A stretch of DNA of 64,000 bases from an uncultured Mycoplasma sp. Lineage in GTDB: Bacteria > Bacillota_I > Bacilli_A > RF39 > UBA660. The notes below the pieces were generated by a model. That model saw nothing but the letters and a program-made list of their open reading frames with translations. It was not told the DNA's origin and made no database searches. Every line of letters starts with the position of its first letter. Position 1 is the stretch's first letter. A program made the translations under genes and the position numbers. This document shows positions 10,137 through 64,000 of the stretch, piece by piece. The stretch is taken from assembly GCA_945947035.1 (NCBI GenBank), contig CAMEXD010000004.1:2362-66361 (forward strand), given 5' to 3'.

Positions 10137-10156
10137 TTTTAAGTAAGGTGATAATA

Positions 10157-24460: not shown

Positions 24461-24488
24461 TTTTTAATAATTTTTAATAATTTAATAA
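24461..24488. repeat. intergenic motif copy: TTTTTAATAATTTTTAATAATTTAATAA
   Basis: Identical over 25-28 nt to the copies at 32132 and 45992. Follows a terminator, precedes the radical SAM gene. Confidence 0.6.
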
Positions 24489-29116: not shown

Positions 29117-29181
29117 TATTTAAGGATTTATAAAAATTAAATAGTATCATAGTTTTATATTTAATCAATTTTATGTAAGAG

Positions 29182-29769
29182 GTGAAAATTTTGAAAGAAT
29201 CAGGATTATATAGATTTTCTAGACCTATTGTAAAAGCTTTTACTAATTTTTTTATTAGACCTAAATATGAAGGTTTGGAAAACATCCCAGAAAAAGGACG
29301 AATTGTTTTAGCAGGAACACATACACATAATTTAGATTGTTTTTTATTAATGAGTTCTACTAAAAGAAGTGTTCACTTTCTTGCAAAAGATGAATTGTGG
29401 AAAGGACCAAAAAAAATAATTTTTTCTAATATGGGATTAATACCTGTAAATAGGCGACAAAAAGATCCTAATTCATTACTAAAAGCAAAAGAGTATTTAG
29501 AAAATGAAGCAGTAATAGGCATTTTTCCAGAAGGTACTACTGAAAAAGAAAAAGGGAAACTATTACCATTTAAGATTGGCGCAGTGAAAATGGCAAGTGA
29601 TACAAATACAAAAATTATTCCATTTGCAATTAAAGGAAAATATAAATTATTTTCAAATAATTTAGCTATAAGATTTGGTAAACCCTATGATATAAAGTCA
29701 AAAGATTTAGATGAAGAAAATAACAAACTTAAAGATAAGGTTAGCAAGATTTTAACGGAGATGAATTAA
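29182..29769 (+). CDS. PlsC-family acyltransferase
   Basis: H(x)4D GTHTHNLDC and FPEGTT. The probable true start is TTG 29192 after RBS AGAGGTG. Confidence 0.7.
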   Translation: MKILKESGLYRFSRPIVKAFTNFFIRPKYEGLENIPEKGRIVLAGTHTHNLDCFLLMSSTKRSVHFLAKDELWKGPKKIIFSNMGLIPVNRRQKDPNSLLKAKEYLENEAVIGIFPEGTTEKEKGKLLPFKIGAVKMASDTNTKIIPFAIKGKYKLFSNNLAIRFGKPYDIKSKDLDEENNKLKDKVSKILTEMN

Positions 29770-31503: not shown

Positions 31504-32104
31504 AAATGTTGATAAATTGCCATATATGTATTGGATTGGTAAATATATATTAGGTCCAATATTTAGATTCTATTATAATCCTAAAATAGTAGGGGCTGAA
31601 AATATTCCAGAAAATGGTTCAGTATTAATTGTTGGTAATCATAAACATTTATATGATCAAAATTCTATAATTATATCTACAAAAAGATTTGTTAGTTATA
31701 TGGCAAAAAAAGAATATTTTGATGATAAAAAAGTGGCATGGTTTTTTAAGGGTTCAGGATGCATCCCAGTTGATAGAAGTAAAAAAGATCCTAATGCAGT
31801 AAAGAAAGCAATTGATATATTAAACAATGGAGGAGCAATAGGTATATTTCCAGAAGGAACTAGAAATAAAACAAAAGAATTTTTATTACCATTTAAATTT
31901 GGAGCAGTGTCTATGGCAAAGAAAACTGATTCTTGGATAGTACCATTTGGAATAACAGGAGATTATAAATTTAGAAGTAAAAATTTAACTGTAAGATTTG
32001 GTAAACCATTTAAAGTCGATAATATGGAACTAGAAGAAGCAAATGAAAAATTATATAATGAGGTTAAAAATTTAATGCTTAAAAATTTAGAGGATACAAG
32101 ATAA
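31475..32104 (+). CDS. PlsC-family acyltransferase (start probably at one of the internal Met 31493-31499)
   Basis: VGNHKHLYDQ (H(x)4D) and FPEGTR. Confidence 0.7.
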   Translation: MTMEVMMMNKNVDKLPYMYWIGKYILGPIFRFYYNPKIVGAENIPENGSVLIVGNHKHLYDQNSIIISTKRFVSYMAKKEYFDDKKVAWFFKGSGCIPVDRSKKDPNAVKKAIDILNNGGAIGIFPEGTRNKTKEFLLPFKFGAVSMAKKTDSWIVPFGITGDYKFRSKNLTVRFGKPFKVDNMELEEANEKLYNEVKNLMLKNLEDTR

Positions 32105-32106
32105 TA

Positions 32107-32137
32107 TTTGTAATGAAAATTACAGGTATTATTTTTT
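32107..32137 (+). terminator. weak terminator hairpin TGTAAT-GAAA-ATTACA followed by a T-rich run
   Basis: 6-bp stem, T6 run begins 8 nt downstream. Confidence 0.35.
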
Positions 32138-34986: not shown

Positions 34987-35058
34987 GTAATTAAAAAATA
35001 ATAATTTGTTCTTAAAATTAATATTGTCAATTAATTAATTTTGTCAAAGAGGAATGTT

Positions 35059-36759
35059 ATGAGAAGAAAAAAAGAAAATAGAAAATGGATAAATCAATAT
35101 AATGATTCTAGAGCAAATTTAGAGTACCCAAGTGGAAGCATGGTGGATGCTTTGATGTCAGTAGCAAGAAAATATCCAGAGTATTATGCTTATGAATACT
35201 TTGGTAAAAAAGTAACATATCGTGAATTTGTTAAACATATAGAGATTGTGGCAAAGTCTTTAAAAAATTACGGTGTAGATAAAGATGATAGAATTACAAT
35301 TTGTATGCCAACAACGCCTGAAGCAATATGTATGGTATATGCAATAAATTTGATTGGTGCAGTTGCAAATATAATTCATCCATTATCTAGCGAAAAAGAA
35401 ATTGAAAATTATGTTAATCAAGCTGATTCAAGATTCATGTTAACATTTGATGGGACATTAGAAAAAATCTTGAGAATTAAAAGAAATACTAATCTTCAGA
35501 AAATCATTGTGGCAAAACCAGACACTTCGTTGCCACCATTAAAACATTACTTATATAAAGTAACGAATTTCAAAAAGAAAGTAAAAATTCCAAAAGATGA
35601 TGATATTGTGCCTTGGAATACTTTTGTTGGAAGTGCAAATAACTTTGTAGGTATTTGTCATGAGCCAAGAAAATCAGATGATTTAGCAGTAATTCTTTAT
35701 AGTGGAGGTACAACAGGAACTCCCAAAGGTATTATGTTATCAAATTTGAATTTTAATGCTATAGCACTAGGAGCTCATGAATTAATCAAGCAAACATTAC
35801 CTGGAAATTCAGTATTATCATTATTGCCAATTTTTCATGGCTTTGGGTTAGCAGTTTGCATTCATACTCCGTTGTTATGTGGAATGAAATGTATTTTATT
35901 ACCAAAATTCAATTCAAAAAAATTCGGTGGAATTATTAAACAAACAAAGCCAAACTTTTTAGTTGGAGTTCCTACATTATTTGAGGCATTGCTAAAGCAG
36001 AAATTAAATAAAAACGACTTAGAATGTATAGAGGCAGTTATTTCTGGTGGAGATGTATTAACTCCTGAATTAAAAAAGAAAGTTGATAATTATTTATATG
36101 AACATGGTTCTTATGCAACTATTAGACCAGGATATGGTTTGACTGAGGCAACTGCTGCAACATGTTTATCTAATGAGGATAAATATGTTGAAGGTGGTAT
36201 AGGTATTCCTTTTCCAGATTGTTATTTTAAGATTGTAAAAATAAATACCCACGAAGAAGCAGAAATTAACGAAGATGGTGAAATATGTATAAGTGGACCA
36301 ACAGTTATGATGGGATATTTAAATAATGATGTAGAAACAAATCAAACATTAAAATATCATAAAGATGGAAAATTATGGCTACATACTGGAGATGTAGGTT
36401 GTATGACTGAAGATGGAACTATTATTTTTAAACAAAGAGTAAAAAGAATTATAGTATCTAGTGGATACAATATATATCCTTCTTATGTAGAGAATATTAT
36501 TTCAAGTCATAAAGATGTACTTGCTTGTACTGTAATTGGAGTACCTCACCCATATAAAGGTCAAGTTGCTAAAGCTTATATTGTGTTAAAAGATGGAGTA
36601 GAAGAAAATAGCAAAATAAGAAAAGAAATTCAAGAATTATGCCTAAAAAATGTTAGTAAATATTCATTGCCAGCAGAATATGAATATCGCAAACAACTAC
36701 CAAAAACATCTGTTGGGAAAATAGCAGTTAATGAATTAGAGAAAGAAAATGAAGGGTAG
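35059..36759 (+). CDS. AMP-dependent synthetase/acyl-CoA ligase (paralog of 29770..31503)
   Basis: RBS AGAGGA then ATG 35059. LYSGGTTGTPKGIM AMP-binding motif. Confidence 0.8.
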   Translation: MRRKKENRKWINQYNDSRANLEYPSGSMVDALMSVARKYPEYYAYEYFGKKVTYREFVKHIEIVAKSLKNYGVDKDDRITICMPTTPEAICMVYAINLIGAVANIIHPLSSEKEIENYVNQADSRFMLTFDGTLEKILRIKRNTNLQKIIVAKPDTSLPPLKHYLYKVTNFKKKVKIPKDDDIVPWNTFVGSANNFVGICHEPRKSDDLAVILYSGGTTGTPKGIMLSNLNFNAIALGAHELIKQTLPGNSVLSLLPIFHGFGLAVCIHTPLLCGMKCILLPKFNSKKFGGIIKQTKPNFLVGVPTLFEALLKQKLNKNDLECIEAVISGGDVLTPELKKKVDNYLYEHGSYATIRPGYGLTEATAATCLSNEDKYVEGGIGIPFPDCYFKIVKINTHEEAEINEDGEICISGPTVMMGYLNNDVETNQTLKYHKDGKLWLHTGDVGCMTEDGTIIFKQRVKRIIVSSGYNIYPSYVENIISSHKDVLACTVIGVPHPYKGQVAKAYIVLKDGVEENSKIRKEIQELCLKNVSKYSLPAEYEYRKQLPKTSVGKIAVNELEKENEG

Positions 36760-36765
36760 TGTATT

Positions 36766-37644
36766 ATGGCAAATGTAAAAATAGGCATAATTGATGTTGG
36801 TGGAGGAATGAAGGGTATATATGGTGCAGGTATATTTGATTATTTAATAGACAATAATGTTGAGATTCCATATTGTATTGGTGTATCAGCAGGATCTGCA
36901 AATATTGTTTCTTATTTGTCAAAACAAAGTAGAAGAAATAAAAAATATTACCAAGAATATAGTTTTGAAAAAGACTATATGAGTATTCATAACTATTTGC
37001 GTAAAGGTTCATTTTTAGATTTAGATTATATTTATGGTGGTCTTTCAAATGAAGGTGGCAAATATCCATGGGATTATGATGCTGCTATGTCAAATAGTGC
37101 GGAAATGGTTGTAGTAGCAACTGATGCTAAAACAGGAAAGGCAGTATATTTCAATAAAAATGATTTTGCGAAAAATGATTATGGAATGTTAAAAGCTTCT
37201 TCTTGTATTCCAATTGTATGCAAACCATATAATTGGAAAGGTAAAGAATATTTTGATGGTGGAATAAGTGATCCTATTCCTATTAAAAAAGCATTTAAAG
37301 ATGGTTGTACCCATGTAATTGTTATATTAACTAGACCAATAGATTACCGTAAAAAAACAGAACATGAAAGATTCTTTAAAAGATTAAGAAAAAAATACCC
37401 TAAAATAGAAGAAAAATTATATACAAGGTGTGATTTATATAATAATCAATTAGAAGAAACTTTAGAAAAATATGTTAAAAATGGTAAAGCATTTGTAATT
37501 GGCCCAGATGATGTCTGTAATGTTGATACTCTAAAAAGAAAAAAAAGTAATTTAGAAAAACTCTATAAAAAAGGATATCAAGATGGTAAAGAAATTGAAA
37601 AATATATTAATTTAATTAAAAAAAATAAAAATAATAATTCTTAA
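36766..37644 (+). CDS. patatin-like phospholipase
   Basis: GGGMKGIYGAGIFDYL (oxyanion GGxxG), GVSAGS (GxSxG nucleophile) and FDGGISDP (catalytic Asp). Confidence 0.8.
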   Translation: MANVKIGIIDVGGGMKGIYGAGIFDYLIDNNVEIPYCIGVSAGSANIVSYLSKQSRRNKKYYQEYSFEKDYMSIHNYLRKGSFLDLDYIYGGLSNEGGKYPWDYDAAMSNSAEMVVVATDAKTGKAVYFNKNDFAKNDYGMLKASSCIPIVCKPYNWKGKEYFDGGISDPIPIKKAFKDGCTHVIVILTRPIDYRKKTEHERFFKRLRKKYPKIEEKLYTRCDLYNNQLEETLEKYVKNGKAFVIGPDDVCNVDTLKRKKSNLEKLYKKGYQDGKEIEKYINLIKKNKNNNS

Positions 37645-37958: not shown

Positions 37959-38642
37959 ATGGATTACTATTTTGTTAGTTATGGCTTAACAATAATATCA
38001 TTAATTATTACTTTGGCTGCTCAAGCATTTGTATCAAGTTCTTATAGTAAATACTCAAAAGTCAAAAACGCAAGAGGAATAACAGGGAAAGATGTTGCAA
38101 GATATTTATTAGATAAATATGGTCTATCTAATATTCGAGTTGTAGAAACAAATGGATATTTAACAGACCATTATGATCCAACTAATAAAGTTATTAAGTT
38201 ATCAAAGAATGTTTACAGGGATTCAACAATTGCTTCTGTGTCTGTTGCAGCTCATGAATGTGGTCATGCAATTCAAGACAAAGAAAACTATATGTTTTTA
38301 CGAATTAGAAGTGCTTTAGTCCCTATTGTAAATTTTTCATCACATGCAGGATATTTTGCAATCTTATTAGGTTGTATTTTTGGTTCTTTAAATCTAATAT
38401 GGATAGGTATAATTGCTGAAATGGTAATATTACTATTTCAAATAATTACTTTACCAGTTGAAATTGATGCTAGTAAGAGAGCATTAAAAGAATTAGATCA
38501 CATTCATTTTTTTAATAGTAATGAATTGGCAGAGAGTAAAACAATGTTGACAGCTGCAGCTCTTACTTATGTGGCAAGTATTGTTACTACTTTAATTCAA
38601 GTTTTAAGATTAATATTTATGTTTGGAAATAGACGAGATTAA
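37959..38642 (+). CDS. membrane-bound zinc metallopeptidase (Zn_peptidase_2/YpuA-like family)
   Basis: HExxH in AAHECGHAIQ. N- and C-terminal TM helices. Confidence 0.65.
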   Translation: MDYYFVSYGLTIISLIITLAAQAFVSSSYSKYSKVKNARGITGKDVARYLLDKYGLSNIRVVETNGYLTDHYDPTNKVIKLSKNVYRDSTIASVSVAAHECGHAIQDKENYMFLRIRSALVPIVNFSSHAGYFAILLGCIFGSLNLIWIGIIAEMVILLFQIITLPVEIDASKRALKELDHIHFFNSNELAESKTMLTAAALTYVASIVTTLIQVLRLIFMFGNRRD

Positions 38643-38645
38643 TAG

Positions 38646-39371
38646 GTGTATATTATGAAGTTTGAAAAGAAAAGGATAGGTAAAATGGTTAGACTAATTT
38701 TATCTTTAATAGTTATTGCAATTATGATAAGACAGATAATTCTAAAAGAATGGTTTATGGTATTTGCTTGTGTTTTTACACTTGTTGTATTTGCATTACC
38801 AAGAGTATTTTATAGAAAGTTCAATATAAAGTTTCCATTGGCATTAGAAATTGCAATATACTTATTTGTATTTGGAGCTGAAATAATCGGTGAAATAGGA
38901 GAATACTATATAAATGTTTCTTGGTGGGATGATTTATTGCATACAGTAAGTGGAATGCTACTTACAGCTGCAGGATTATTTTTTATAAGTGTGTTAAATA
39001 ATGAAAACAAAAGATTAAATTTGCCTGTATTTTATAAAGTTCTTGCAGCTTTTTGTTTTTCAATAACCATTTTAGCTTTATGGGAATGTTTTGAATTTGG
39101 AGCAGATTGCTTAACAGGATCTGATATGCAAAAAGACACTTTTATTACAACCATAAATAGTGTTGATTTAAACGAAAAAAAAGTTAATAAATCAGTAAAT
39201 TTAGAAATAGAAACTTTGGAAGTAAATGGTGAGGATTGGATGAAAAAATATGGTGGATATTTAGATATTGGTCTATATGATACAATGTATGATTTATTAG
39301 ATGGTCTTCTTGGTGCTTCAATATATTCTGTATTCAGTTATTTCTATTTGAAGAAAAACCAATATGCTTAA
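38646..39371 (+). CDS. hypothetical polytopic membrane protein
   Basis: Six hydrophobic helices. No motif. Confidence 0.35.
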   Translation: MYIMKFEKKRIGKMVRLILSLIVIAIMIRQIILKEWFMVFACVFTLVVFALPRVFYRKFNIKFPLALEIAIYLFVFGAEIIGEIGEYYINVSWWDDLLHTVSGMLLTAAGLFFISVLNNENKRLNLPVFYKVLAAFCFSITILALWECFEFGADCLTGSDMQKDTFITTINSVDLNEKKVNKSVNLEIETLEVNGEDWMKKYGGYLDIGLYDTMYDLLDGLLGASIYSVFSYFYLKKNQYA

Positions 39372-39378
39372 AAAATAA

Positions 39379-40179
39379 TTGGTGGTGATAAAATTGAAGA
39401 AAAGAGTTTTGAGTGCAATTATTATGACTTTAATAGTTATACCATTTATTGTAATAGGTGGTAATTTATTTAATATAGGTATAAGTATTTTAAGTATATT
39501 AGCTTTTAAAGAGTTAATGAATTTAAATGATAATAAAAATTATCCTTTGGTTATAAAGATAATCAGTTTAATAAGTATTATATTTTTAATTAATTATAGA
39601 AATACAGATGCTGATTTAATGCTTAATATACCAATATGGATAATATCTTCAATAGTAGGATTATTATTTATTCCAGTTGTATTTAATATCAAGAATTATA
39701 ATTCAAATAAAGCATTTAAAATGTTAGCAAATGTGCTATTTTTAGGAATAACATTTAATTTACTAATATCTACTTATAACTATAGTTTAAAATATTTTTT
39801 ATTGCTAATTGTTATATGTGCATTTACGGATATGTTTGCTTTGTTTGGTGGTAAATTATTTGGTAAACATAATTTTACGGAAATTAGTCCAAATAAAACT
39901 ATTGAAGGTTGCATATCAGGTTCTTTAGTAGCAATTATTGTAGCATCAATATTTTACTATTTTGTTATTAACAAAAATCTAACTATCATTAAAATAATAA
40001 TAATTTTATTATTAAGTATTATAGATCAAGTTGGTGATTTATTTTTTAGTAAAATCAAAAGAGATAATAACATTAAAGATTTTTCTAATCTAATTCCAGG
40101 GCATGGAGGAATTTTAGATCGATTAGATAGTTTTACTTTTGTACTATTAATGTTTAGCATAGTCTTTAGAGTATTATGA
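39379..40179 (+). CDS. cdsA: phosphatidate cytidylyltransferase
   Basis: CdsA signature NKTIEGCISGS and GHGGILDRLDS near the C-terminus. Polytopic. Confidence 0.8.
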   Translation: MVVIKLKKRVLSAIIMTLIVIPFIVIGGNLFNIGISILSILAFKELMNLNDNKNYPLVIKIISLISIIFLINYRNTDADLMLNIPIWIISSIVGLLFIPVVFNIKNYNSNKAFKMLANVLFLGITFNLLISTYNYSLKYFLLLIVICAFTDMFALFGGKLFGKHNFTEISPNKTIEGCISGSLVAIIVASIFYYFVINKNLTIIKIIIILLLSIIDQVGDLFFSKIKRDNNIKDFSNLIPGHGGILDRLDSFTFVLLMFSIVFRVL

Positions 40180-40394
40180 AAGGCGATTATATGAAAGATG
40201 ATAATAATATAGAAGATAAAGTAGATTGCTTTGCAAGAATTAATAAAGAAATATGCAATGCTTTAATTAAAAAAGAATGTAAAAATTGTAACTTTTATAA
40301 GCACAAAGATGATGTGTTCGGATATGAAGAAATACTAAAAAAAGGAAAAAAAGAACTATTAAAAACACAAAAAAAGATTAGTTGTGCAATTTAA
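40176..40394 (+). CDS. small Cys-rich hypothetical protein
   Basis: 72 aa with C..C..CKNC. Overlaps neighbouring stops. Confidence 0.3.
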   Translation: MKGDYMKDDNNIEDKVDCFARINKEICNALIKKECKNCNFYKHKDDVFGYEEILKKGKKELLKTQKKISCAI

Positions 40395-40425
40395 AAATAT
40401 TATATAGAAGGAATGATAAAATTAT

Positions 40426-45959: not shown

Positions 45960-45967
45960 ATTAGAAG

Positions 45968-45997
45968 AAACTCACATTTCAATGATGCGAGTTTTTT
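45968..45997 (+). terminator. rho-independent terminator
   Basis: AAACTC(A)CAT-loop-ATG(C)GAGTTT then TTTTTT. Confidence 0.55.
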
Positions 45998-46020
45998 AAT
46001 AATTTTTAATAATTTAATAA
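45992..46020. repeat. intergenic motif copy: TTTTTTAATAATTTTTAATAATTTAATAA
   Basis: Exact match to 24461 over 28 nt. Directly follows the terminator at 45968. Confidence 0.6.
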
Positions 46021-46410
46021 AAAAATAATAAATCGAATTTTGTATATTTAAGCCATGGTAGTTTGATGTAAGAAACAGGCAATGCCATGGCTATTAATAT
46101 GAAAGGATGTTGAAGTAGTAATAAAAAAATAGAATTTTATAGTTGAGTAGTACCTTCTATTTTTTAATAATTGTATTATTTAGCTTAAGATTTCATAGAT
46201 TTGCAGTATTTGTCTATGATGAATTAAATTGACATTGCTCATAAAGAATGATTTATTTATGAGTAAAAAATACTGCAGACTTAAAATATATTTAATAATA
46301 TTAGTCAATAATTTTTCAGGGACAAGAATTTGTATTTACAGCGATACGAGTTCTTGTTCCTTTTTTTATTTTTCGAGAAATATTGTAAAAAAATGTAGAT
46401 CACCTCCTTT

Positions 46411-46445
46411 TATCAATTTTGAATTTAAAAGTTTGAAATTGATAG
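46411..46445 (+). promoter_or_regulatory. inverted repeat TATCAATTT-N16-AAATTGATA immediately upstream of the RBS of the sigma-like gene
   Basis: 9-bp perfect arms, ends 1 nt before GGAGGA RBS. Confidence 0.3.
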
Positions 46446-46455
46446 GAGGATATAT

Positions 46456-46926
46456 ATGAGTGATAGTCCTAAAAGGAGGAAATATTTTGATAATCCTTAT
46501 GAAATTAGAATTATTAATGAGAAGTATTTTATCTGCTTTAAGGATAATAAAAATAAAATGCAAGAAATAGAAGTTAGTTCAAAAATATATAAGATATTTG
46601 ATGATTCTGAACTACATGATTTATCAGAATTAAATGAATATGATAGACATATAGAACATTCTGAAATTTTTGATATATCACTTTATCATAGAAGTAATGA
46701 AGAAATGTATTCTTTAGAAAAAGAGGTTGAGGATAAGATTCTTAATGAAGAATTAAGAGATTGTATTAGAACACTACCAGATGTTCAAAGAAGAAGGATT
46801 ATTAAATATTATTTTGATGATAAAAATGAATATGAAATAGCTGAAGAAGAAGGAACAACTCATCAAGCAGTAAATAAATCTTTAAAGCAAGCTCGAGAAA
46901 AATTGAGACAAATTTTAAAAAAATAG
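46456..46926 (+). CDS. sigma-70 region-4 (HTH) domain regulator, ICE-associated
   Basis: C-terminus LRDCIRTLPDVQRRRIIKYYFDDKNEYEIAEEEGTTHQAVNKSLKQAREKLR matches sigma-70 region 4. N-terminal part lacks region 2. Confidence 0.55.
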   Translation: MSDSPKRRKYFDNPYEIRIINEKYFICFKDNKNKMQEIEVSSKIYKIFDDSELHDLSELNEYDRHIEHSEIFDISLYHRSNEEMYSLEKEVEDKILNEELRDCIRTLPDVQRRRIIKYYFDDKNEYEIAEEEGTTHQAVNKSLKQAREKLRQILKK

Positions 46927-46960
46927 AAATTTAGGGTTGCTATTTTGCTTATGAGTGAGG

Positions 46961-47010
46961 AAACAAGTGAGAGGGTTAATTATTTAATTTTTCTCACTTG
47001 TTTATTTTCA
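46961..47010 (+). terminator. terminator: 12-bp stem AAACAAGTGAGA/TCTCACTTGTTT with T-rich tail
   Basis: Perfect 12-bp inverted repeat 46961-46972/46992-47003, then TTTATTTTC. Confidence 0.55.
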
Positions 47011-47149
47011 AGTTTGTTCTTTGACAATTTTATATTCATTCATTAAATACATTCCTATTATTAATAGCACTGTAATTGGTTCGCTTGCGATTAAAACCAG
47101 ATTATAAAAATAGATAGCAACTATTTTGCGATGACGAATAATAGGTATA

Positions 47150-47300
47150 ATGATACTTCTGTCCAGCCACAACCTCAAGTAATGGGGGCAGTTCTGTGAG
47201 AACCACAGAGAGGTGAGATGCCTATGGAACTAATTAGCTATTAGTCATTTAATGATTTCCAGCCGAGGGGTTCGGGGAAAAATATCGGTGAAGTAAAAAA
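47150..47300 (+). ncRNA. GC-rich structured 5' leader or small RNA candidate upstream of ORF 47319
   Basis: Local GC around 45% against a roughly 25% background. Hairpin TCTGTG-AGAAC-CACAGA nested in CCTC...GAGG, CTAAT-TAGCT-ATTAG, CCGA-GGGGT-TCGG. Duplicated CCAGCC boxes at 47163 and 47259. Weak TTGCGA/TATAAT promoter-like hexamers upstream. Confidence 0.25.
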
Positions 47301-47318
47301 TATAAATAAAAGGAAAAG

Positions 47319-47534
47319 GTGATTCAAATGAAAAAATATGATGTGAAAATTAAGGTGGTAAAGGAACACGATATAATAGTTAGTGCAACTTGTAGAGAAG
47401 AAGCAATTAGTAAGGTAGATGAATTAGTTGCTGGTTCAGGAATTCAATATTTAGATATTCCTAATTTTACAAAGCATTATATTATTATAGATATTGATAA
47501 GAAACCTATATTCAAAAGAAAGCATCATAGATGA
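47319..47534 (+). CDS. small hypothetical protein
   Basis: RBS AAAGGTGATTCAAATG. 71 aa basic C-terminus. Confidence 0.3.
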   Translation: MIQMKKYDVKIKVVKEHDIIVSATCREEAISKVDELVAGSGIQYLDIPNFTKHYIIIDIDKKPIFKRKHHR

Positions 47535-47573
47535 TTTGTGTTTTTGAAAAAATGATGGTAGCATCAAAGTGAG

Positions 47574-56194: not shown

Positions 56195-58558
56195 ATGAAT
56201 AGAAGAATTAAAAATGCTAAAACATTTACTAATATTAAATGTATTGGCGATGATGGATTATTAGAACTAAAAAATGGTGGATATGCTTCTTTAATAGAAA
56301 TTAAAGCAGTTGATTTATCATTATCTAGTAATCAAGAGAAAACCAATTTCTTTAATTCATTAAAAGTTTTATATCAAATTAAAGATTTGAATTTAAAATG
56401 TTATAAACTTGATGAGCCAATTAATTTAAATAATAATAAATTGAATTTATCTAAACTTATTGAAAAACTAAAGAATTGTGCTAGAAAAGTATTTCTATTA
56501 AACGAAAGAAAAAGTTTGATAGAAGAATTAGAAGAGAATAATTTTACTGTTTCTAGTATTTATTATTTAGTTGTAATAGCAAAAGATTTAAACATATTAG
56601 AAAGACAACTAGATGAAATAGAAGATTTACTCGCTAATCTTCAACCTAAAATAACAGCAGAAATAATTAATAATAGATTAGAAATATATAAATTTTTATC
56701 TAATTTATATATGTGTAAAAATCCACTTGATTTATTAATGTGGGCAGATTTAATGGAACTAATTGTTCCGTTAAATATTTCTGAAAGAACTAATATGTTA
56801 AAAATAGATGACAATGAAGTTCAAATGGTAACAATTAAAAATATTCCACCATTTGTAGATGAATTGTTTTTTGAAGAGATATTTAATTATCCAAATGTTA
56901 GAAGTTGTATCAATATTAAGGATGCGATAGATCAAGATGAATTAATCAGGTGGGTTAATTCACAATATCAGTTTTTATTATCAGATAGAAATACTACTAA
57001 AAAATTAAGTGATGCAACAGAACTTGATACTCAAAAAGAAAATTTTCAATTACTTATGAATGATATAAAAAATGGTGATGAAAAAATAAAAGAAGTATCT
57101 TTAATTTTAATGGTTACTGGTAATAAAAAAGAACGAGATGAAATAATCAGAGATTTAAAAAGAATAGTTGAAAGGTATCAAATAAAATTAGATATTCCAA
57201 GACTTCGTCAAATGGAAACTTTTCAATGTTTTGATATAACTAATCTTTCTTTAAAGGATTATTCAGTTTATTTACCAACACTTACTTTAAGTGCAGGTTT
57301 TCCATTCACTAAAACATATTTTAATGATTCAACAGGATATATGCTAGGAGTTGATATTCATACAAGTTTACCAATCTTCTTTGATCCATTTGTTTTAAAT
57401 AATAAAAGAACTTCTCATAATGTAGCAATTATATCTTCAACCGGTGGAGGTAAAAGTTTTACTATGAAGAAAATGATTGTTAATGAATATGCAAGAGGAA
57501 CTAAAATTTTTATTTTTGATGCAGAAAATGGGTATGAAAAATTAGTTAAAGCAAATGATGGAGAATATATAGATTTGTATTCTAAAAAAGGTGGAATGAT
57601 TAATCCACTTCAAATAAGATATATTCCAAGCGATGAGAAACAAGAAACAAAAGAAACAGATTGTCCTCTAGCTAAACACTTAGGATTTTTAGATGCATTT
57701 TTCAAAAGTGCTTTTGATGATATTAAAGAAAAAGAATTAGTTATGCTTTTAGCAATACTTGAGGATTTATATAATAAAAAAGGTATTTATAAAAATACTT
57801 CAATAAATACTTTGCAAGAATTAAGACCAGAAGATTATCCTATATTTTCTGATTTATATAATTATCTTCCAGAATATAAAAAGAAACTAGATAGTATAGA
57901 AAAGCAAAAATTAGTAGATCAGTTAGATGTGTTGTTATCCAGATTTTTAACTGGAACTGATTCATTTTTATTTAATGGTCATACAAATATTGATTTAAAT
58001 AATGATTTAATTGCATTTAATCTTCAAGAACTACTTTATAGTGGTAATCAGAGATTAATAAATACTCAAACATTAAATCTATTAACTTATTTAAATAATA
58101 GTATTGTTGCAAATAAAATAATCAATGTAAAGAGAAATTCTGGTGATAAACAACATATTAGTATTGTTGTTGATGAATTTCATTTATATATTGATGAAAA
58201 CAATAATGAAGTAATTAAGAATTTTGGACAACTTGCAAGAAGATGCAGGAAGTACAACACTAATTTGATTTTATCTAGTCAATGTATATCTGACTTTTTA
58301 GGAAATGCAACAGTTCTTCGTCATGCTTCTGCTATATTTAATAACTGTCAATATACTATGATAGGAATGTTAAAGGAAGATGATTTAAAAGCATATTTAG
58401 AATTATTTAAAAACAATCCTTTAACTGATACTCAAAAAGCATTTCTTTTAGGTGCAAGACGAGGTGAGTTCTTACTTAATATAGACAATAAAACTAGATT
58501 AAGAATATGGATAAGAGCTACCGAAACGGAAAGAGAAATGATGGGGGAGATTGAATAA
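56195..58558 (+). CDS. VirB4/TraE/TcpF-family conjugative ATPase
   Basis: Walker A STGGGKSF, Walker B IVVDEFH, 787 aa. Confidence 0.85.
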   Translation: MNRRIKNAKTFTNIKCIGDDGLLELKNGGYASLIEIKAVDLSLSSNQEKTNFFNSLKVLYQIKDLNLKCYKLDEPINLNNNKLNLSKLIEKLKNCARKVFLLNERKSLIEELEENNFTVSSIYYLVVIAKDLNILERQLDEIEDLLANLQPKITAEIINNRLEIYKFLSNLYMCKNPLDLLMWADLMELIVPLNISERTNMLKIDDNEVQMVTIKNIPPFVDELFFEEIFNYPNVRSCINIKDAIDQDELIRWVNSQYQFLLSDRNTTKKLSDATELDTQKENFQLLMNDIKNGDEKIKEVSLILMVTGNKKERDEIIRDLKRIVERYQIKLDIPRLRQMETFQCFDITNLSLKDYSVYLPTLTLSAGFPFTKTYFNDSTGYMLGVDIHTSLPIFFDPFVLNNKRTSHNVAIISSTGGGKSFTMKKMIVNEYARGTKIFIFDAENGYEKLVKANDGEYIDLYSKKGGMINPLQIRYIPSDEKQETKETDCPLAKHLGFLDAFFKSAFDDIKEKELVMLLAILEDLYNKKGIYKNTSINTLQELRPEDYPIFSDLYNYLPEYKKKLDSIEKQKLVDQLDVLLSRFLTGTDSFLFNGHTNIDLNNDLIAFNLQELLYSGNQRLINTQTLNLLTYLNNSIVANKIINVKRNSGDKQHISIVVDEFHLYIDENNNEVIKNFGQLARRCRKYNTNLILSSQCISDFLGNATVLRHASAIFNNCQYTMIGMLKEDDLKAYLELFKNNPLTDTQKAFLLGARRGEFLLNIDNKTRLRIWIRATETEREMMGEIE

Positions 58559-59346
58559 TGTCAACGAGAAGCAGTATTGCCATTAAAAGAAAAGATGGAA
58601 CAGTTCAAAGTGTATATTGTCATAGTGATGGTTATTTAGAATATAACGGAGTTATGCTTAATAAATTTTATAAAGATCAGAAGAAGATAAATTCGCTTAT
58701 TAATTTAGGTGATTTATCTTTTTTAGATAGAAAAGTTAATCCAGAAAAAGGAATAACACACAGTTTTGATTATGAAAAAAGACAAGAGGGTGTAACTGTT
58801 GCTTATGTTAGAGATAGAAATGATAAAAATACTCAAAAGCATATTCATAAATCGGTAGATGATTATATTAAATCATTTGCTAATTCATGGCAAGAATATG
58901 CTTATTTGTATGATGAAGAAAATCATAAATGGTTATGGTCTGAAATACCTATTGATAATAAAGATGGAATGAACTTTATACCATTAGAAGATACATTAAA
59001 TAAAAAAGGCTTAATGGAACGAGTGGATAAAAAATTCAATGATATAATATGGCAACAAATTGAATTTGAAAAAGGATTTGATATAGGAACTTATAATGAA
59101 GTTTATGAATCAGACGAAGATGCTTATTATGACTATCAAACTTTATTATCAACTCCAAAAGGAATAAAAGGACATATAGAGGCATTAAAAGGTTATATTG
59201 ATGATATGGAAAATGATAATACAGAATTTGTTAAAACAGTACCTAAGAAATTTATCAAGATAGCTAAAAACAATATTAAGTCTTTAGAAAAATATGCAAA
59301 GGAAGTTTATCCTTATTTTGATGAAGTTGAGTTTCCAGAAATATAG
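58558..59346 (+). CDS. hypothetical conjugation-module protein
   Basis: 262 aa, soluble, start overlaps the VirB4 stop. Confidence 0.3.
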   Translation: MSTRSSIAIKRKDGTVQSVYCHSDGYLEYNGVMLNKFYKDQKKINSLINLGDLSFLDRKVNPEKGITHSFDYEKRQEGVTVAYVRDRNDKNTQKHIHKSVDDYIKSFANSWQEYAYLYDEENHKWLWSEIPIDNKDGMNFIPLEDTLNKKGLMERVDKKFNDIIWQQIEFEKGFDIGTYNEVYESDEDAYYDYQTLLSTPKGIKGHIEALKGYIDDMENDNTEFVKTVPKKFIKIAKNNIKSLEKYAKEVYPYFDEVEFPEI

Positions 59347-59355
59347 GAGTTAATA

Positions 59356-60270
59356 TTGAAGAAAAAAGTATTAAAAATCATTTTGGGTTCATCAACAGGA
59401 TTAATTTTTATGTCAATTATAATAATTGTTCCTGTTCTTATGTTATTGGATTTTTTCGGTGCTAATATTACAGATGGCTATATTGAAAATAATAGTGATT
59501 ATGCAGATATGTATCAAAGTGTTGTTAGAAAAAATGTTAAAGCTGGAAATGGCTATGTTTCTCTAAGTAGGATTTTATATTTCTACTTAGAGAACAATCA
59601 ATTAACTTTTGATATGATTTATACTGATAATTTAGATACTGATTTAAAGCAAGAAAAACCAATATCAGAAGTATGTGAATTGAATAGATATAAAATATAT
59701 TCTGTTTGCAATAAAGATGAACTTGAAGATTCTGGACAAATAAATGAGATTCAAAATAAACCTTTTACAAGTCCACTTGATTATGACAAATTAAATGTAA
59801 CGAGTTTTTTTATGCAAGAGAGAATTGTATATGGAACTGCTGATGTTCATCCTGCTTGGGATTTTGCATCACCAGCTCAAACACCAATTTATTCGGTATG
59901 TGATGGTAAAGTAGAAACAGTATCATTTAGATATTCTACTAACACTATTGATAAAAGTGGTGGAGGTGGAAATCAGATAGTAGTGTCTTGTGATGTAGAT
60001 GATATTACTTATAAAGTTAGATATGCTCATCTATATCCCGATTCTTCTACTGTAAAAGAAGGGGATATGGTAACTCAAAATCAAAAAATAGCAACTGTTG
60101 GAACAACAGGATATTCAACAGGAAACCACTTACATTTTCAAGTATCAAAGGATGGAACACCGGTCGATGGATTAAGTTTAATAGATTTTACTAATACTAA
60201 TTATACTAATCCATTTGTAATACCATCTAATCCAAATTATGGACTAGATAATGGATTGTTTTATCCTTAA
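59356..60270 (+). CDS. membrane-anchored M23 (LytM) peptidase, T4SS cell-wall hydrolase
   Basis: N-terminal TM. HPAWD (HxxxD) and GNHLHFQV (HxH) M23 motifs. Confidence 0.8.
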   Translation: MKKKVLKIILGSSTGLIFMSIIIIVPVLMLLDFFGANITDGYIENNSDYADMYQSVVRKNVKAGNGYVSLSRILYFYLENNQLTFDMIYTDNLDTDLKQEKPISEVCELNRYKIYSVCNKDELEDSGQINEIQNKPFTSPLDYDKLNVTSFFMQERIVYGTADVHPAWDFASPAQTPIYSVCDGKVETVSFRYSTNTIDKSGGGGNQIVVSCDVDDITYKVRYAHLYPDSSTVKEGDMVTQNQKIATVGTTGYSTGNHLHFQVSKDGTPVDGLSLIDFTNTNYTNPFVIPSNPNYGLDNGLFYP

Positions 60271-60349
60271 ATCTATATATAAAAAATAAGTATAGATGGA
60301 TTAAATACACACTTGTTGTGGATTATTTTGCAAGTGCAAAATGTGAAAT

Positions 60350-60416
60350 AATATCACTAAAATTGCTGTTTTTACTTATAAAAATGCTAGTAGTGATATT
60401 GTTTCCTTTATCCTGC
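60350..60416 (+). other. candidate oriT: 10-bp inverted repeat AATATCACTA-N31-TAGTGATATT followed 9 nt later by ATCCTGC (MOBP/Q-type nic consensus)
   Basis: Upstream dyad ATTTTGCA-AG-TGCAAAAT at 60325-60342. Sits in front of an RHH gene. Nic core YATCCTG|Y at 60408-60416. Confidence 0.4.
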
Positions 60417-60467
60417 TTACAAATAGTGCTTATTTTTAATATATTTCAATCCATAAAAGGAGGGATT

Positions 60468-60647
60468 ATGTCACATTATTTATTAAGAATAAGAAGTGAA
60501 GTTTACGATAGAATTAGATTATTCGCTAAACAAGAAAATATAAGTATAAACAAAATGATAATCAAACTTATTTCAATAGGTATGATTACATATTTAAAAG
60601 GAGGAATGAGTAATGAAAATGTCGTTAACCAAGTTAATAGCAAATGA
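60468..60647 (+). CDS. ribbon-helix-helix (CopG/Arc-like) protein, candidate relaxosome accessory factor
   Basis: Strong RBS AAAGGAGGG then ATG 60468. MSHYLLRIRSEVYDRIRLFAKQENISINKMIIKLI has the beta-strand/helix-helix pattern. Confidence 0.45.
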   Translation: MSHYLLRIRSEVYDRIRLFAKQENISINKMIIKLISIGMITYLKGGMSNENVVNQVNSK

Positions 60648-61032
60648 TATCATTAACTATGGAATGAATGATACTACAGCTGATCAATATATAGTTTATT
60701 TAGATAGTTATTTAGATGATTTTGATGAGAAATCTAAAAAATATATTTTAGATAATTTAGATCAGATAGTAGAAGATGTAGAATCAAATGATAAAGTTTG
60801 TGATTTAGAATATGATAAAAAAGAAAAATCTTTTGATATGATTTTTTACTGGGATTGTTTATTTAATCCAGTTGATGAATTAGTAATGAATGTATTAAAA
60901 GAAAAAGAAATGGGAGATAAAATTAGAATTTATGAAGTTAAAGGTATTGCTCAAGAAGTTCTAGATGATGAAGGAACAAAGAATTTAGCTTATGAAAAAA
61001 TCTTGAATTATCATACGGAGTTTGAACTATGA
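60613..61032 (+). CDS. acidic hypothetical protein
   Basis: 139 aa. No motif. Confidence 0.3.
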   Translation: MKMSLTKLIANDIINYGMNDTTADQYIVYLDSYLDDFDEKSKKYILDNLDQIVEDVESNDKVCDLEYDKKEKSFDMIFYWDCLFNPVDELVMNVLKEKEMGDKIRIYEVKGIAQEVLDDEGTKNLAYEKILNYHTEFEL

Positions 61033-61421
61033 AGTTAAGGTATTATACTAATACCGAGATTGAAAAAATTAAAAGCAATATGTTTGTAATAGATGTATTG
61101 CATAAAAGAAGAATAGAGTATGATTATGTATTTAAATTATGGTGTGTAATGATGAGATTAAAGTTTCCAGAATTAACTGGTAAACAGATTTTTGAAAGAG
61201 CTGGATTTGATACTTCTATACTTCATGATTATCTTCCATATAGAAGAATTGGTGAATGGGTTAAAAGTTATAAAAAATTTGGAGTATATTATTTTATTCC
61301 AGAAGATGAACCTTATCATTCTATAAAAGTTAAAACTAAAAAACAAAAACTAGATATTTTTAAATTAAAACTTTTAAAGGTTGTTTTAAAAGATTTAAAA
61401 AAATTAGATAAGGATAAATAA
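61029..61421 (+). CDS. hypothetical protein
   Basis: 130 aa basic. Confidence 0.3.
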   Translation: MKLRYYTNTEIEKIKSNMFVIDVLHKRRIEYDYVFKLWCVMMRLKFPELTGKQIFERAGFDTSILHDYLPYRRIGEWVKSYKKFGVYYFIPEDEPYHSIKVKTKKQKLDIFKLKLLKVVLKDLKKLDKDK

Positions 61422-61696
61422 TGTTTAGGGAAGAATACAATTATAGATATGATATTCAAGTAAAGGTTGAATGTGAACATTGTGAGAATAGTTTTATTAG
61501 ACATGATGTTTTAAAAACAACTTATCCAGAAACAAAAGAAAGCTTAGAAGAAATGTATGAAAATAGTTGTGAAGGATTATCAGAAGAAGAAACGACTCAT
61601 TGTGAAAAATGTGATGGTTATATGTTTGAAACTGAAGTTATTAAATTCTTTGAAACTCCAATTACAAAGGAGATAGGCGATATTGAAATTGGATAG
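61421..61696 (+). CDS. zinc-ribbon protein (two CxxC pairs)
   Basis: CEHCEN ... HCEKCDG. Confidence 0.3.
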   Translation: MFREEYNYRYDIQVKVECEHCENSFIRHDVLKTTYPETKESLEEMYENSCEGLSEEETTHCEKCDGYMFETEVIKFFETPITKEIGDIEIG

Positions 61697-62006
61697 ACAT
61701 ATAAAAGTAGATGAAGAACTTCACAATAAGATTTTATTACTGTCTAAAGAATCTAAACTTTCGTATTCTGATGAAGTAAGTTTATTAGTAGAAGAAGCAC
61801 TATCTAATAGAATTAAGCAAACACAGTTAGATAAGATGCAAAATGATATTTTATATTTAGTTAAAAAGGTTAATTTACTATATTTATTAGTTAAGCAGAT
61901 GTATTCAGATTTTAATATTAATCCAAATAATATTACTGATCCTAAAACTAGTCCTGCTTTAAATGAATTTTTAAGAAAGGTTAAAGTTAATAGATTAGAT
62001 GACTAG
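61683..62006 (+). CDS. hypothetical protein, possible RHH/MobC-like accessory
   Basis: N-terminus HIKVDEELHNKILLLSKESKLSYSDEVSLLVEEAL. Confidence 0.25.
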   Translation: MKLDRHIKVDEELHNKILLLSKESKLSYSDEVSLLVEEALSNRIKQTQLDKMQNDILYLVKKVNLLYLLVKQMYSDFNINPNNITDPKTSPALNEFLRKVKVNRLDD

Positions 62007-62724
62007 TCCTAAAGTAATATTCAATTGTAGATTTACTCATGCTTTTAATAGAAAAGAAGCTCATTATACTAAAAAACAAATTGAAGGATTAAAAAAGAAA
62101 ATTGCTCGTAAATTTGATTATTTTTCAAATGAAGAAAAAAGAGTAATGAATCTATTTGAATACTATGTTGGTAATTTAACTAAAAAAGAAACAATGAATC
62201 TTGTAATTGAAAATGGTAAATATGCTACTCCTGAAGAAATAGAAAGAAGGAAGAAAAGATTTATCAAATATGCAGAAAAATCTAACTTATGGCAAGGTGT
62301 CATAAGCTTTAATAATGAGTATTTAACTCAAAATATTACATTACAGGATTTGGAACAGGAAGTAATTAAAAATGTGCTTCCTCGTTTCTTTAAAAAAATG
62401 GGATTTAAAGATATAGATAAAATGGCTTATAATTTATCTCTTCATACTGATACTGATAACTTGCATATTCATTTTAGTTTTATAGAGAAGCAACCTAACT
62501 ATATTTATTATAATAAAAAAGTTGATTATAGAAGAAAAGGTGAACTATCACAAGAAGAAATTGATTTCTTAAAAAATGAAGTTGTCATTGCTGTAGAAAG
62601 GAATCAATTTCTTTCACCTATGATAAAAATGACTAATGATGAAATAGAAAAATTAAAAAAACATTTTAATCCAAAAGAAAAGAATTTTATTTTATATGAT
62701 AAAAAGGATTTATTATTAGAATAA
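61999..62724 (+). CDS. HUH relaxase (MobA/VirD2-type, PF03432-like), N-terminal 241 codons up to an in-frame TAA
   Basis: Histidine-triad motif HTDTDNLHIHFSFI (HxDxxNxHxH). Tyr23 candidate in AHYTKKQ. The same frame continues after TAA 62722-62724 as 62725..63312. Confidence 0.65.
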   Translation: MTSPKVIFNCRFTHAFNRKEAHYTKKQIEGLKKKIARKFDYFSNEEKRVMNLFEYYVGNLTKKETMNLVIENGKYATPEEIERRKKRFIKYAEKSNLWQGVISFNNEYLTQNITLQDLEQEVIKNVLPRFFKKMGFKDIDKMAYNLSLHTDTDNLHIHFSFIEKQPNYIYYNKKVDYRRKGELSQEEIDFLKNEVVIAVERNQFLSPMIKMTNDEIEKLKKHFNPKEKNFILYDKKDLLLE

Positions 62725-63312
62725 AAAATATTAAGAGTTGGTAAATTACTTTATCAAGAAAGAAAAGATAAATATAAAAGAATAAAATTTAATTCTTTAA
62801 GAGATGAAGAAATAAAATCATTAGTGAAAGATATTAAAAAGTATTTATTTAATAGCAAAGGTGAATTTTATAATGATTATGTTGATTTTAAAAGAAGTTT
62901 AAAGAGTATAAATGATTATCTATTTAAGGTTAATATTGATAATAATGTTTCTAATATTGTTATCAATGACAAATACACTACTGAAAAAGAACAATATACA
63001 GATAATTATATATTTAATGCTATTGTTAATCATGCTAATTATTTCTTTAAAAAGAATTCAAAAAAATATCATACTTTAAATGAAGATGATATTTTAAGAG
63101 AAATATTTTTAAATGAATATAAAAAAAATAAACAACAAACAAGAGCTACAATTTTAGAAAACTATTTAACAAATACTGTTAAAACTCAAAAATATAAGAA
63201 TCGTTATAAAGTAAGAAATGCTATTAGAAATATAAATAATGAAATGGAAGAAGCTCAAAAAGAGTTTAGTAAATTATTCCAACCTGATAATTCATATTCT
63301 AAAAATTATTAA
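62725..63312 (+). CDS. relaxase C-terminal continuation (same frame as 61999..62724, separated by a single TAA). Called as ORF 62824..63312
   Basis: Frame identity (both frame 1). Open from 62725. Basic/Asn-rich tail typical of relaxase C-terminal regions. Confidence 0.4.
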   Translation, partial: KILRVGKLLYQERKDKYKRIKFNSLRDEEIKSLVKDIKKYLFNSKGEFYNDYVDFKRSLKSINDYLFKVNIDNNVSNIVINDKYTTEKEQYTDNYIFNAIVNHANYFFKKNSKKYHTLNEDDILREIFLNEYKKNKQQTRATILENYLTNTVKTQKYKNRYKVRNAIRNINNEMEEAQKEFSKLFQPDNSYSKNY

Positions 63313-63336
63313 AGAGAGGAGATGGTTTAATGCCAA

Positions 63337-64000
63337 ATTGGACTATGAATAAAATAACTTGTAAAAAATCAATTGGTGATAAAATACTAACTAAAACTGA
63401 TGATGGATATTCATTTGACTTTAATAAATTAATTCCAATGCCAAAAGAAATGAATATTCCAGCAGGTTCTACAGAACATATTGCAGTAGCTAGTTATTAT
63501 CATTCACTTGATAAACAAGGTAAAAGAGATTTAGAAGACCAACTTGAAAAAAGTAAGGTCTTTTTTGATTCTGATTATTGGAGAAGATATGAAACATATA
63601 TTGATGATTACACAAAAGAACCAGATAAATTAAAAAAGGAAGAAGAAAATTTTAAATATAGAGATAATGAACAAATTAAAAAGTTTAGTTCTTATTCAGA
63701 ATTAGGTAAACAGTATGTAGATAATATCATCAATTATGGATATTCTCAATGGTATGATTGGTGTAGTGAAGTATGGGGAACAAAATGGAATGTTGAAGAT
63801 GAAGTAGATGTTGAATATTATCCAGAAAGTGATGAATATGAAATAGAATTCAACACAGCTTGGTGTGTTCCTTATGGAATAGTTGAAGAATATAGTAAGC
63901 TTTGCTCTGATGAGGAATTTGATTGGCAATATATTAATGAAGATTATGATGGACATCATCATTTGCGAAAACATAATGAAGTAATAAGTGATACTGTCAT
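63337..64000 (+). CDS. hypothetical ICE protein, 5' partial view (continues past window end)
   Basis: RBS GAGAGGAG then ATG 63337. Open to 64000. Contains SEVWGTKWNV ... FNTAWCVP blocks. Confidence 0.4.

Follow-up and report, generated by a model that had tools for sequence, protein, structure and literature searches.

Integrative and conjugative elements (ICEs) that carry large serine recombinases are known from the Firmicutes, for example Tn5397 with TndX and the CTn-type elements of Clostridioides difficile. The Tn916/ICEBs1/ICESt3 superfamily is defined by a coupling protein of the FtsK/TcpA type. The mycoplasma ICEs (MICE), such as ICEA of Mycoplasma agalactiae, move by a DDE Mutator-like transposase (CDS22) and insert at random (PMC6030558). 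In this study, we analyzed a 64,000-nucleotide stretch of DNA from an uncultured Mycoplasma sp. (contig CAMEXD010000004.1), which is called the window below. A preliminary description had assigned its last 18 kb to an ICE. We found that positions 45,96x to 64,000 very probably make up the left ~18 kb of an ICE that is integrated in the chromosome and measures ~27-29 kb in total, a length scaled from the related locus L113 (related loci are referred to by L numbers). This kind of ICE is well known. The element itself is new, and it probably represents a new family within the ICEs.

The gene block at 46,456-64,000 is tightly packed and co-directional on the + strand, in a window that has ~25% G+C throughout and carries nearly all of its genes on the + strand. 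Genes were assigned from Pfam and NCBIfam profile matches, with positions on the open reading frames (ORFs) of the window. These matches supported nearly every gene listed in the preliminary description for a conjugation module beginning at ~46.0 kb. The channel, DNA-processing and adjoining genes are as follows.

54,109-58,558, + strand: core of the type IV secretion system (T4SS), in the order pilin-like, VirB6-like, VirB3-like, VirB4
54,109-54,429, + strand: T4SS_pilin-like protein (25.6 bits, just below the cut-off)
54,439-55,797, + strand: VirB6-like protein, 452 amino acids (aa) (DUF8208; pLS20_p028, MMCAP2_0566 and Mbov_0396 all below cut-off)
55,802-56,065, + strand: VirB3-like protein, 87 aa (N-terminus of the Mbov_0397 model, E = 8e-4)
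56,195-58,558, + strand: VirB4 ATPase, 787 aa (PF19044, PF01935; NF045975, E = 3e-151)
from 58,558 to before the M23 gene, + strand: 262-aa protein, function unassigned
59,356-60,270, + strand: M23 peptidase (PF01551, 73.9 bits)
60,326-60,416, + strand: candidate oriT, in the 197-bp gap after the M23 gene
60,468-62,006, + strand: five small ORFs of 59, 139, 130, 91 (CxxC zinc-ribbon-like) and 107 aa
61,999-63,312, + strand: MobL/MOBP-type HUH relaxase gene, interrupted by TAA at 62,722-62,724
63,330-64,000, + strand: start of a conserved 236-aa gene that ends at window-equivalent 64,040

Like the serine-recombinase ICEs of the Firmicutes, the element is chromosomal and ~20-30 kb long, its conjugation genes form a single long co-directional operon, and it encodes a small regulator of the sigma-70 region-4 type. 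Its relatives have an XRE repressor, a VirD4 in the CD1115 family and a recombinase at one end. However, its T4SS core is closest to Mollicutes ICE proteins, and the sigma gene is found at the other end of the integrated element from the recombinase. A further difference from the C. difficile-type ICEs is seen in VirB4, which scored 145 bits against the CD1110-family cut-off of 325. Unlike in Tn916-like elements, the relaxase is of the MobL/MOBP type and not Rep_trans (MOBT), for which no match was found in any scanned ORF. The coupling protein of the relatives is VirD4/T4SS-DNA_transf, which separates them from the Tn916/ICEBs1/ICESt3 superfamily as a whole.

Similarly, the comparison with the MICE gave both likeness and difference. 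The best NCBIfam matches of the T4SS proteins were Mbov_0395, Mbov_0396 (together with pLS20_p028) and Mbov_0397, in the same gene order as in the MICE, and a surface lipoprotein, a single-stranded DNA-binding protein (SSB) and a length of ~27 kb are shared as well. However, no DDE domain was found among the window ORFs, and the relatives carry a large serine recombinase instead. The scores for the Mbov families were all below cut-off. VirB4 failed the Mbov_0397 equivalog with 505 bits against a cut-off of 590, although this was still by far its best-scoring family. A peptidoglycan hydrolase, a sortase and a wall-anchored adhesin are present, in contrast to the MICE, and these three imply that the element lives in walled hosts. 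The pLS20-type Bacillus plasmids share with the locus a MobL relaxase above the gathering score, a VirB6-like protein whose top match is pLS20_p028, and a long co-directional conjugation operon. The locus is integrated, however, and its scores were much lower than the plasmid-family cut-offs (76.7 bits vs 150 for pLS20_p028, and 55.7 vs 200 for MobP2, NF041498, with the intact relaxase of L002). No rep family, which would have pointed to a replicon of its own, was found among the scanned ORFs.

As there is no DDE transposase, a VirB4 below cut-off, no Rep_trans relaxase and no rep family, the locus cannot be placed with the MICE, the Tn916 superfamily or free plasmids. It combines a MOBP/MobL relaxase with a Mollicutes-ICE-like T4SS core and with accessories specific to a cell wall (sortase, adhesin and M23 hydrolase). 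This defines an architecture for a widespread and uncharacterized ICE family of low-GC uncultured gut Firmicutes: a sigma/pemK leader, adhesin and sortase, the Mollicutes-like T4SS core, a MOBP-type relaxase with its oriT, cargo, a methylase, VirD4 and a serine recombinase. Such ICEs move genes among gut bacteria that are not yet culturable. The result mainly confirms and completes an annotation, and specialists will not find it surprising.

The T4SS genes proposed before (VirB2-like, VirB6-like, VirB3-like and VirB4, with the M23 hydrolase) all had profile matches, several of them weak or below cut-off. The pilin-like, VirB6-like, VirB3-like and VirB4 proteins would form a minimal Gram-positive T4SS channel, for which the M23 hydrolase may open the peptidoglycan. 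Roles in adhesion, channel formation and DNA processing are given throughout from protein families alone. Some relatives have additional genes at the VirB3/VirB4 spot, where the window has a 130-bp gap. L113 carries a reverse-transcriptase gene (RVT_1; L113:3607-4866) between the VirB3-like gene and VirB4, which is probably a group II intron, and a 124-aa ORF is found there in L006 (3679-4053) and L110 (9497-9871).

Integration into a chromosome was supported by the flank. The left 46 kb of the window encode a germination protease (Gpr), RsmH, the penicillin-binding protein (PBP) PBP2B with PASTA, a class I aminoacyl-tRNA synthetase and FtsW/RodA, together with two-component systems, CdsA and a small alarmone synthetase. 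Three of these genes bear on the host.

5,480-6,502: spore germination protease
10,148-12,280: PBP with PASTA
15,385-16,443: FtsW/RodA

They indicate a walled host, although the metagenome-assembled genomes (MAGs) of the relatives are labelled Tenericutes or Bacilli. The host is a walled, probably spore-forming, uncultured Firmicute of very low GC (~25%) and not a mollicute.

An MMPL/732-aa operon closes the chromosomal flank, with its stop codon at 45,959. For the 732-aa protein, homologues in MAGs labelled Tenericutes/Bacilli showed a graded series of identities (93, 78, 74, 70 and 68%), which is the pattern expected of a vertically inherited gene. In L096, a relative with a similar flank (93% aa and 92% nucleotide identity to the window), homology stopped exactly at the stop codon at 45,959 and the block was absent. 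In the 74% relatives, L097-L099, the operon lies ~4 kb downstream of gyrB-gyrA and no conjugation genes come after it. L100, an independent assembly of the same species, reproduced the window junction with 99.7% identity, so that the junction between chromosome and element is now seen in three separate assemblies (the window, an NCBI MAG contig and the Logan contig L100). With the left junction in view, the absence of the block from L096 and the repetition of the junction in L100 imply that the junction is real and the block variably present. No tRNA gene that might have served as integration target was found in the window. The GC content did not mark the boundary either, showing no step and values of ~0.22-0.30 on either side of the junction.

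These results agree with the earlier reading of the block as an ICE, for which the chromosomal flank, the absence from L096, the repeated junction in L100 and near-identical modules in other contexts all speak. The preliminary description had named two situations that would argue against such mobility. One was a block universally conserved at its locus in the species; L096 is without it. The other was the same block on a free plasmid, and no related plasmid was found in PLSDB.

The alternative of a conjugative plasmid, misassembled, mis-binned or integrated by chance, is suggested by the metagenome-assembled source and by the element-carrying contigs, which tend to break off within the cargo. 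In addition, the first MobL relaxases to be described were those of plasmids such as pLS20. However, the junction is found in three separate assemblies and in L101-L103, no replication initiator is encoded in the window part, and related elements lie inside contigs of 144-553 kb (L113 in the middle of a 144-kb contig, L012 in a contig of 553 kb). Related elements end in a large serine recombinase that is followed by chromosomal genes such as tmk. The 18-kb block had no megablast match in the PLSDB plasmids, and the protein matches there did not exceed 31% identity for VirB4 and 33% for the relaxase, the latter over less than half of the protein. The best plasmid matches of VirB4 (27-31% identity) came from Spiroplasma and were ATPases of the 'Mbov_0397 family'. 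A plasmid is thus highly improbable. Even less credit is due to a prophage or phage-plasmid region, which we regard as a negligible prospect. One related contig (L112) is filed in IMG/VR, and SSBs, methylases and serine recombinases also occur in phages, but the Pfam scan of the ORFs turned up no genes for capsid, terminase, tail or lysis functions, the block had no megablast match in 50,697 phage records, and the T4SS, relaxase and oriT set is present.

We also examined the right side of the integrated element. Neither a type IV coupling protein nor an integrase is encoded within the window, as had been noted before and as the ORF scans confirmed. The expected continuation past 64,000 was observed in L001, a 36-kb MAG contig of GCA_019973115.1, which is identical to the window in 11,177/11,177 bases and stops at window-equivalent 65,057. 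In this contig, a DUF4313/sigma-70 region-2 gene follows the 236-aa gene. Beyond it we had to rely on the seven relatives in which the region right of the relaxase encodes a methylase, VirD4 and a large serine recombinase (L006, L010, L011, L012, L014, L112 and L113). They span relaxase identities of 42-90%, plus one member of the 90% cluster to which the window belongs. Their DNA methylase, VirD4 and then recombinase lie 6-8 kb beyond the relaxase, and the order after the relaxase is the 236-aa gene, 1-6 kb of cargo, an N6/N4 DNA methylase, three small ORFs, VirD4 and the recombinase. The cargo is variable (DUF4313, DpnD/PcfM, metallophosphatase, Ser/Thr kinase or ImpB-type polymerase). VirD4 has 668-673 aa and passes the NCBIfam CD1115-family cut-off (307 bits vs 250). 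The recombinase comes immediately after it, with 554-585 aa and Resolvase, Recombinase and Zn_ribbon_recom domains, and in L011 it is followed by the thymidylate kinase gene (tmk).

The presence of VirD4 and the recombinase in seven relatives implies that the genes missing from the window are to be expected past 64,000. The prediction that they lie to the right thus held at the level of the family. By comparison with these relatives, the copy in the window would continue with variable cargo, an N6/N4 methylase, VirD4 and the serine recombinase, and this right-end recombinase would integrate and excise the element. Scans of IMG/VR with VirB4 and with the DUF4313/sigma-r2 protein gave no match, and a scan with VirD4 gave one contig (L112).

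The left end was examined in the same way. The following features precede the sigma gene.

45,960-46,455, + strand: left junction with a non-coding leader of ~0.5 kb ('type A') that precedes the sigma gene
45,968-45,994: hairpin in the leader
45,994-46,023: AT motif of host type
46,051-46,058 and 46,085-46,092: 8-bp CCATGG inverted repeat, AGCCATGG/CCATGGCT
46,318-46,361: hairpin with T-run, like an intrinsic terminator

In the family, the non-coding leader before the sigma gene is ~0.4 kb long and comes in two kinds. Type A is found in the window, L100 and L101-L103. Type B is found in L002, L016, L017 and L104-L109, matches the window only from 46,394, and is preceded further left by an opposite-strand XRE-type repressor and other genes. 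Accordingly, homology to L101-L103 begins at 45,968 and homology to L002, L016, L017 and L104 begins at 46,394, and the part from 46,394 onward, proximal to the ribosome-binding site and promoter, is common to all family members. The type A left end of the window copy is without the XRE module found in most relatives. In L101-L103, the place of the MMPL/732-aa operon is taken by an ABC/FtsX transporter, within the same neighbourhood.

The preliminary description had placed the left boundary in the stretch 46.02-46.45 kb and had pointed to an 8-bp inverted repeat at 46,051-46,092 and to a hairpin with T-run. Both of these are present. The repeat alone is unremarkable (25 inverted-repeat pairs were listed in 1.5 kb), whereas the leader stretch has two terminator-like sites against 0.2 expected. 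Both leader hairpins are kept in L101-L103 with wobble or compensatory changes, which suggests that they are parts of a regulatory leader and not att sites. We therefore rejected the CCATGG repeat and the T-run hairpin as att-site signatures, since they are conserved hairpins inside the leader in L101-L103; for the T-run hairpin, an analogous terminator at the same place in type B leaders also speaks against this reading. The left end can be bracketed to 45,960-46,394 and no narrower. The proposed boundary overlaps this bracket. Similarly, the suggested comparison with genomes lacking the element gave an end of homology at 45,959 in L096, and attL and attR were not definable. When the left-end DNA was compared with all right-end loci by short-word BLAST, no att-like match was found.

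An AT-rich motif, TTTTTAATAATTTTTAATAATTT(AATAA), occurs at window positions 24,463, 32,135, 34,975, 41,627 and 45,995, directly behind terminators in intergenic regions of the host. The chromosomal DNA of L096 and L101 contains it as well, and no element has it in its interior. As the motif at 45,994-46,023 is otherwise only intergenic in the host, it may be host sequence, and the true end of the element may be further right. In the type B relatives (L104:2138-3683, L017:1-1573 and L016:1-480), the oppositely oriented repressor left of the sigma gene is a two-HTH XRE protein, and the variable genes beside it encode 98 aa and an HTH protein of 235 aa, or a 365-aa protein. The type B leader of ~330 nt runs from an TGTTATAAT-type promoter to a strong terminator. 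It may be a regulatory RNA.

The DNA-processing genes differ from the other genes of the block in one respect, an interrupted relaxase. The candidate oriT, proposed before, comprises a small palindrome, TTTTGCAAGTGCAAAA, a 15-nt inverted repeat (60,345-60,359/60,391-60,405) followed by the invariant CCTTTATCCTGCTT, and TATCCTGC at 60,409-60,416. The last of these fits the MOBP nick consensus (C/T)ATCCTG(C/T) and is placed just 3′ of the inverted repeat, as in RP4 (PMC3772185). By itself, the nick octamer is not unusual (8 in the window vs 4.3 expected); what counts is its context. The oriT core is invariant in six relatives, and one stem pair changes from A-T to G-C in relatives, a compensatory change. 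This arrangement, an inverted repeat and then TATCCTGC within a few bases, is like that of the MOBP oriT of the RP4/Ti plasmid type. However, the relaxase is only distantly related to TraI of RP4 (NCBIfam TraI_MobP, 16.8 bits). We predict the nic site after G60415, between TATCCTG and C. The relaxase, together with small accessory proteins, would nick there, beside the inverted repeat at 60,345-60,405.

The five small ORFs between the oriT and the relaxase are found in the same order in all relatives. Their Pfam matches are weak, and they are putative relaxosome accessory proteins. One of them had been described as a ribbon-helix-helix (RHH) protein, for which Pfam gave no support: the 59-aa ORF at 60,468-60,647 had a weak HicB-type match (E = 0.027), and the 107-aa ORF directly upstream of the relaxase had no Pfam match.

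As for the HUH relaxase described before, its domains and histidine motif are present, but the ORF is cut at codon 242. The ORF at 61,999-62,724, a 241-aa fragment, matched PF18555 with 46.4 bits (gathering score 28.5) and PF03432 with 30.3 bits, and the HUH histidine motif HTDTDNLHIHF can be read from the translation at residues ~149-159. Codon 242 is GAA in the relatives and TAA in the window (Glu242 to stop, a single G>T). The C-terminal part continues in the same frame at 62,824-63,312, and the 195 downstream codons are still in frame. Compared with the 437-aa protein of L002, the window relaxase has eight substitutions and the stop. The 14 other members listed of the 36-member 90% relaxase cluster are all full length (437-443 aa). 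The stop was seen in contigs of two lengths. A single G>T with only eight other amino acid differences implies that the stop is very recent. Self-transfer is probably impaired by it, unless the function is provided in trans or the N-terminal domain of 241 aa suffices. Autonomous transfer of the window copy is thus doubtful.

The nonsense mutation also raises the question of whether the block is an immobilized, decaying ICE remnant that is fixed at this locus and neither excises nor transfers. The type A end without the opposite-strand XRE module, which precedes the sigma gene in L017, L104 and numerous more distant elements, is consistent with this, and so are the unseen right end of the window copy and the situation in L101-L103. 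The latter come from a related species, lie in the same neighbourhood (thioredoxin, Zn-peptidase, RelA/SpoT, a 147-aa protein and a transporter) and are 75-90% identical in nucleotides, like the flanks. However, all other ORFs of the block are intact and of the same length as in the relatives, the stop is very recent, and identities of up to 100% with elements elsewhere indicate recent exchange. In addition, L096, a closer relative, is without the element at this site, which speaks for gain or loss rather than ancient fixation. Therefore, we consider a fixed remnant possible but rather unlikely.

Several observations nonetheless weigh against our conclusion that the block is the left part of an integrated ICE. 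The right third of the window copy (VirD4, recombinase and attR) is unseen, the only identical contig ending at 65,057, and att sites could not be defined. The sole other type A copies, in L101-L103, have the same neighbourhood and a divergence like that of the flank, which would also fit an old vertical insertion. In addition, a stop codon cuts the relaxase gene, the NCBIfam scores of VirB4 and of the VirB6-like and pilin-like proteins are all below the family cut-offs, and the RHH assignment was without Pfam support.

Recent exchange is seen most clearly in L104, which has a different left module and a different flank. Positions 51,994-53,594 (1.6 kb) are 100% identical to it in nucleotides, and the identity is 98-99% over 51.2-55.2 kb and only 77-83% over 46.4-47.6 kb. 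The pattern shows that the element is a mosaic that has recently exchanged sequence with elements in other contexts. Hundreds of VirB4 relatives with 81-98% identity are present in public assemblies. A 3.9-kb metagenome contig, L016 (832-2859), joins window-equivalent 47,672 directly to 63,243, with a 9-bp microhomology, GAAGAAGCT, at the joint (window 47,664-47,672 and 63,248-63,256). The 15.6 kb with the adhesin, T4SS and relaxase region are gone, and L016 is either a deletion derivative or a non-conjugative relative. Element turnover can be seen here on a small scale, in mosaic recombination, deletion derivatives and a relaxase that was broken only recently.

Upstream of the long operon are a sigma gene and an RNA motif.

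46,456-46,926, + strand: sigma-70 region-4-only protein, 156 aa (PF08281, 37.4 bits)
46,961-47,003, + strand: terminator hairpin, an inverted repeat upstream of the pemK motif
47,147-47,227, + strand: pemK RNA motif (RF02913; 63.2 bits vs a gathering score of 34.8, E = 1.4e-9)

The Sigma70_r4_2 match agrees with the sigma-70 region-4 regulator that had been proposed before, and the protein is likely a regulator. The pemK motif lies between the sigma gene and the long conjugation operon, in the leader of the latter. Among the other loci scanned, it follows the sigma homologue in 17 of 20, with scores of 49-67 bits. The DNA at 46.4-47.3 kb is 65-72% similar to ~60 loci that are otherwise unrelated and share only the sigma homologue. 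This similarity includes the non-coding stretch at 46,927-47,310, in which the motif lies. These results suggest a conserved cassette of the sigma-r4 gene and pemK. In many of the sigma/pemK loci, serine recombinases are found ~2 kb downstream.

It seems that the terminator-bearing leader and the small sigma-70 region-4 protein would control a single long rightward operon whose 5′ leader carries the pemK motif. We tentatively propose that the sigma-r4 gene with pemK ~220 nt downstream is a cassette that activates transfer or recombination genes of many Firmicutes elements. Separately, and just as tentatively, the ICE family may be a walled-host relative of the mycoplasma ICE transfer machinery. 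A literature search for the pemK motif gave no paper in the collection searched. If these proposals are true, the orphan pemK RNA would gain a function. The family shares the pilin/VirB6/VirB3-VirB4 core with the mycoplasma ICEs and has a recognizable MOBP-type relaxase and oriT besides, which could then help to look for the DNA-processing module of the mycoplasma ICEs.

The remaining genes, between the pemK motif and the T4SS core, are predicted to act at the cell surface or on DNA.

47,319-47,534, + strand: small conserved ORF, 68-71 aa (gene call in L004, L002 and L101)
47,574-48,149, + strand: predicted surface lipoprotein, conserved in relatives (signal peptide and lipobox LFVTGC read from the translation)
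48,166-50,985, + strand: adhesin, 939 aa (TED thioester domain PF08341, six SpaA PF17802)
50,957-51,604, + strand: sortase (PF04203, 64 bits)
51,604-54,045, + strand: DNA-handling/establishment block
51,604-51,879, + strand: HTH_36 protein
51,994-52,386, + strand: first SSB
within 51,604-54,045, + strand: ORF of 149-156 aa
52,822-53,238, + strand: Resolvase-N-like 138-aa protein (weak match, 26.8 bits)
53,243-53,644, + strand: DUF3846 protein
53,665-54,045, + strand: second SSB

The small ORF at 47,319-47,534 is 87-88% identical in L017 and L101. The lipoprotein and the PxTG adhesin with its own sortase, all proposed before, were found with their domains and a VPSTG signal. This motif is in the C-terminus of the adhesin, where the translation continues with a transmembrane segment and KKKKNK. 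The sortase is dedicated to the adjoining adhesin. The lipoprotein and the sortase-anchored thioester adhesin may provide mating contact.

In the DNA-handling block, the HTH_36 protein and the two SSBs, also proposed before, had profile matches at the places given above. The resolvase-like protein was found with its weak Resolvase-N match, but its catalytic Ser seems replaced: YCRVGN stands where recombinases have YxRxS, and the 138-aa protein is thus probably no active recombinase. It matches only part of the Resolvase N-terminal domain and is conserved in all close relatives.

The chromosomal flank is indel-rich even outside the ICE. Three window segments are absent from L096, which is otherwise 85-97% identical. 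They carry an acyl-CoA ligase and an acyltransferase (29,150-32,132), an acyl-CoA ligase and a patatin (35,006-37,632), and DUF2238 and CdsA (38,626-40,405).

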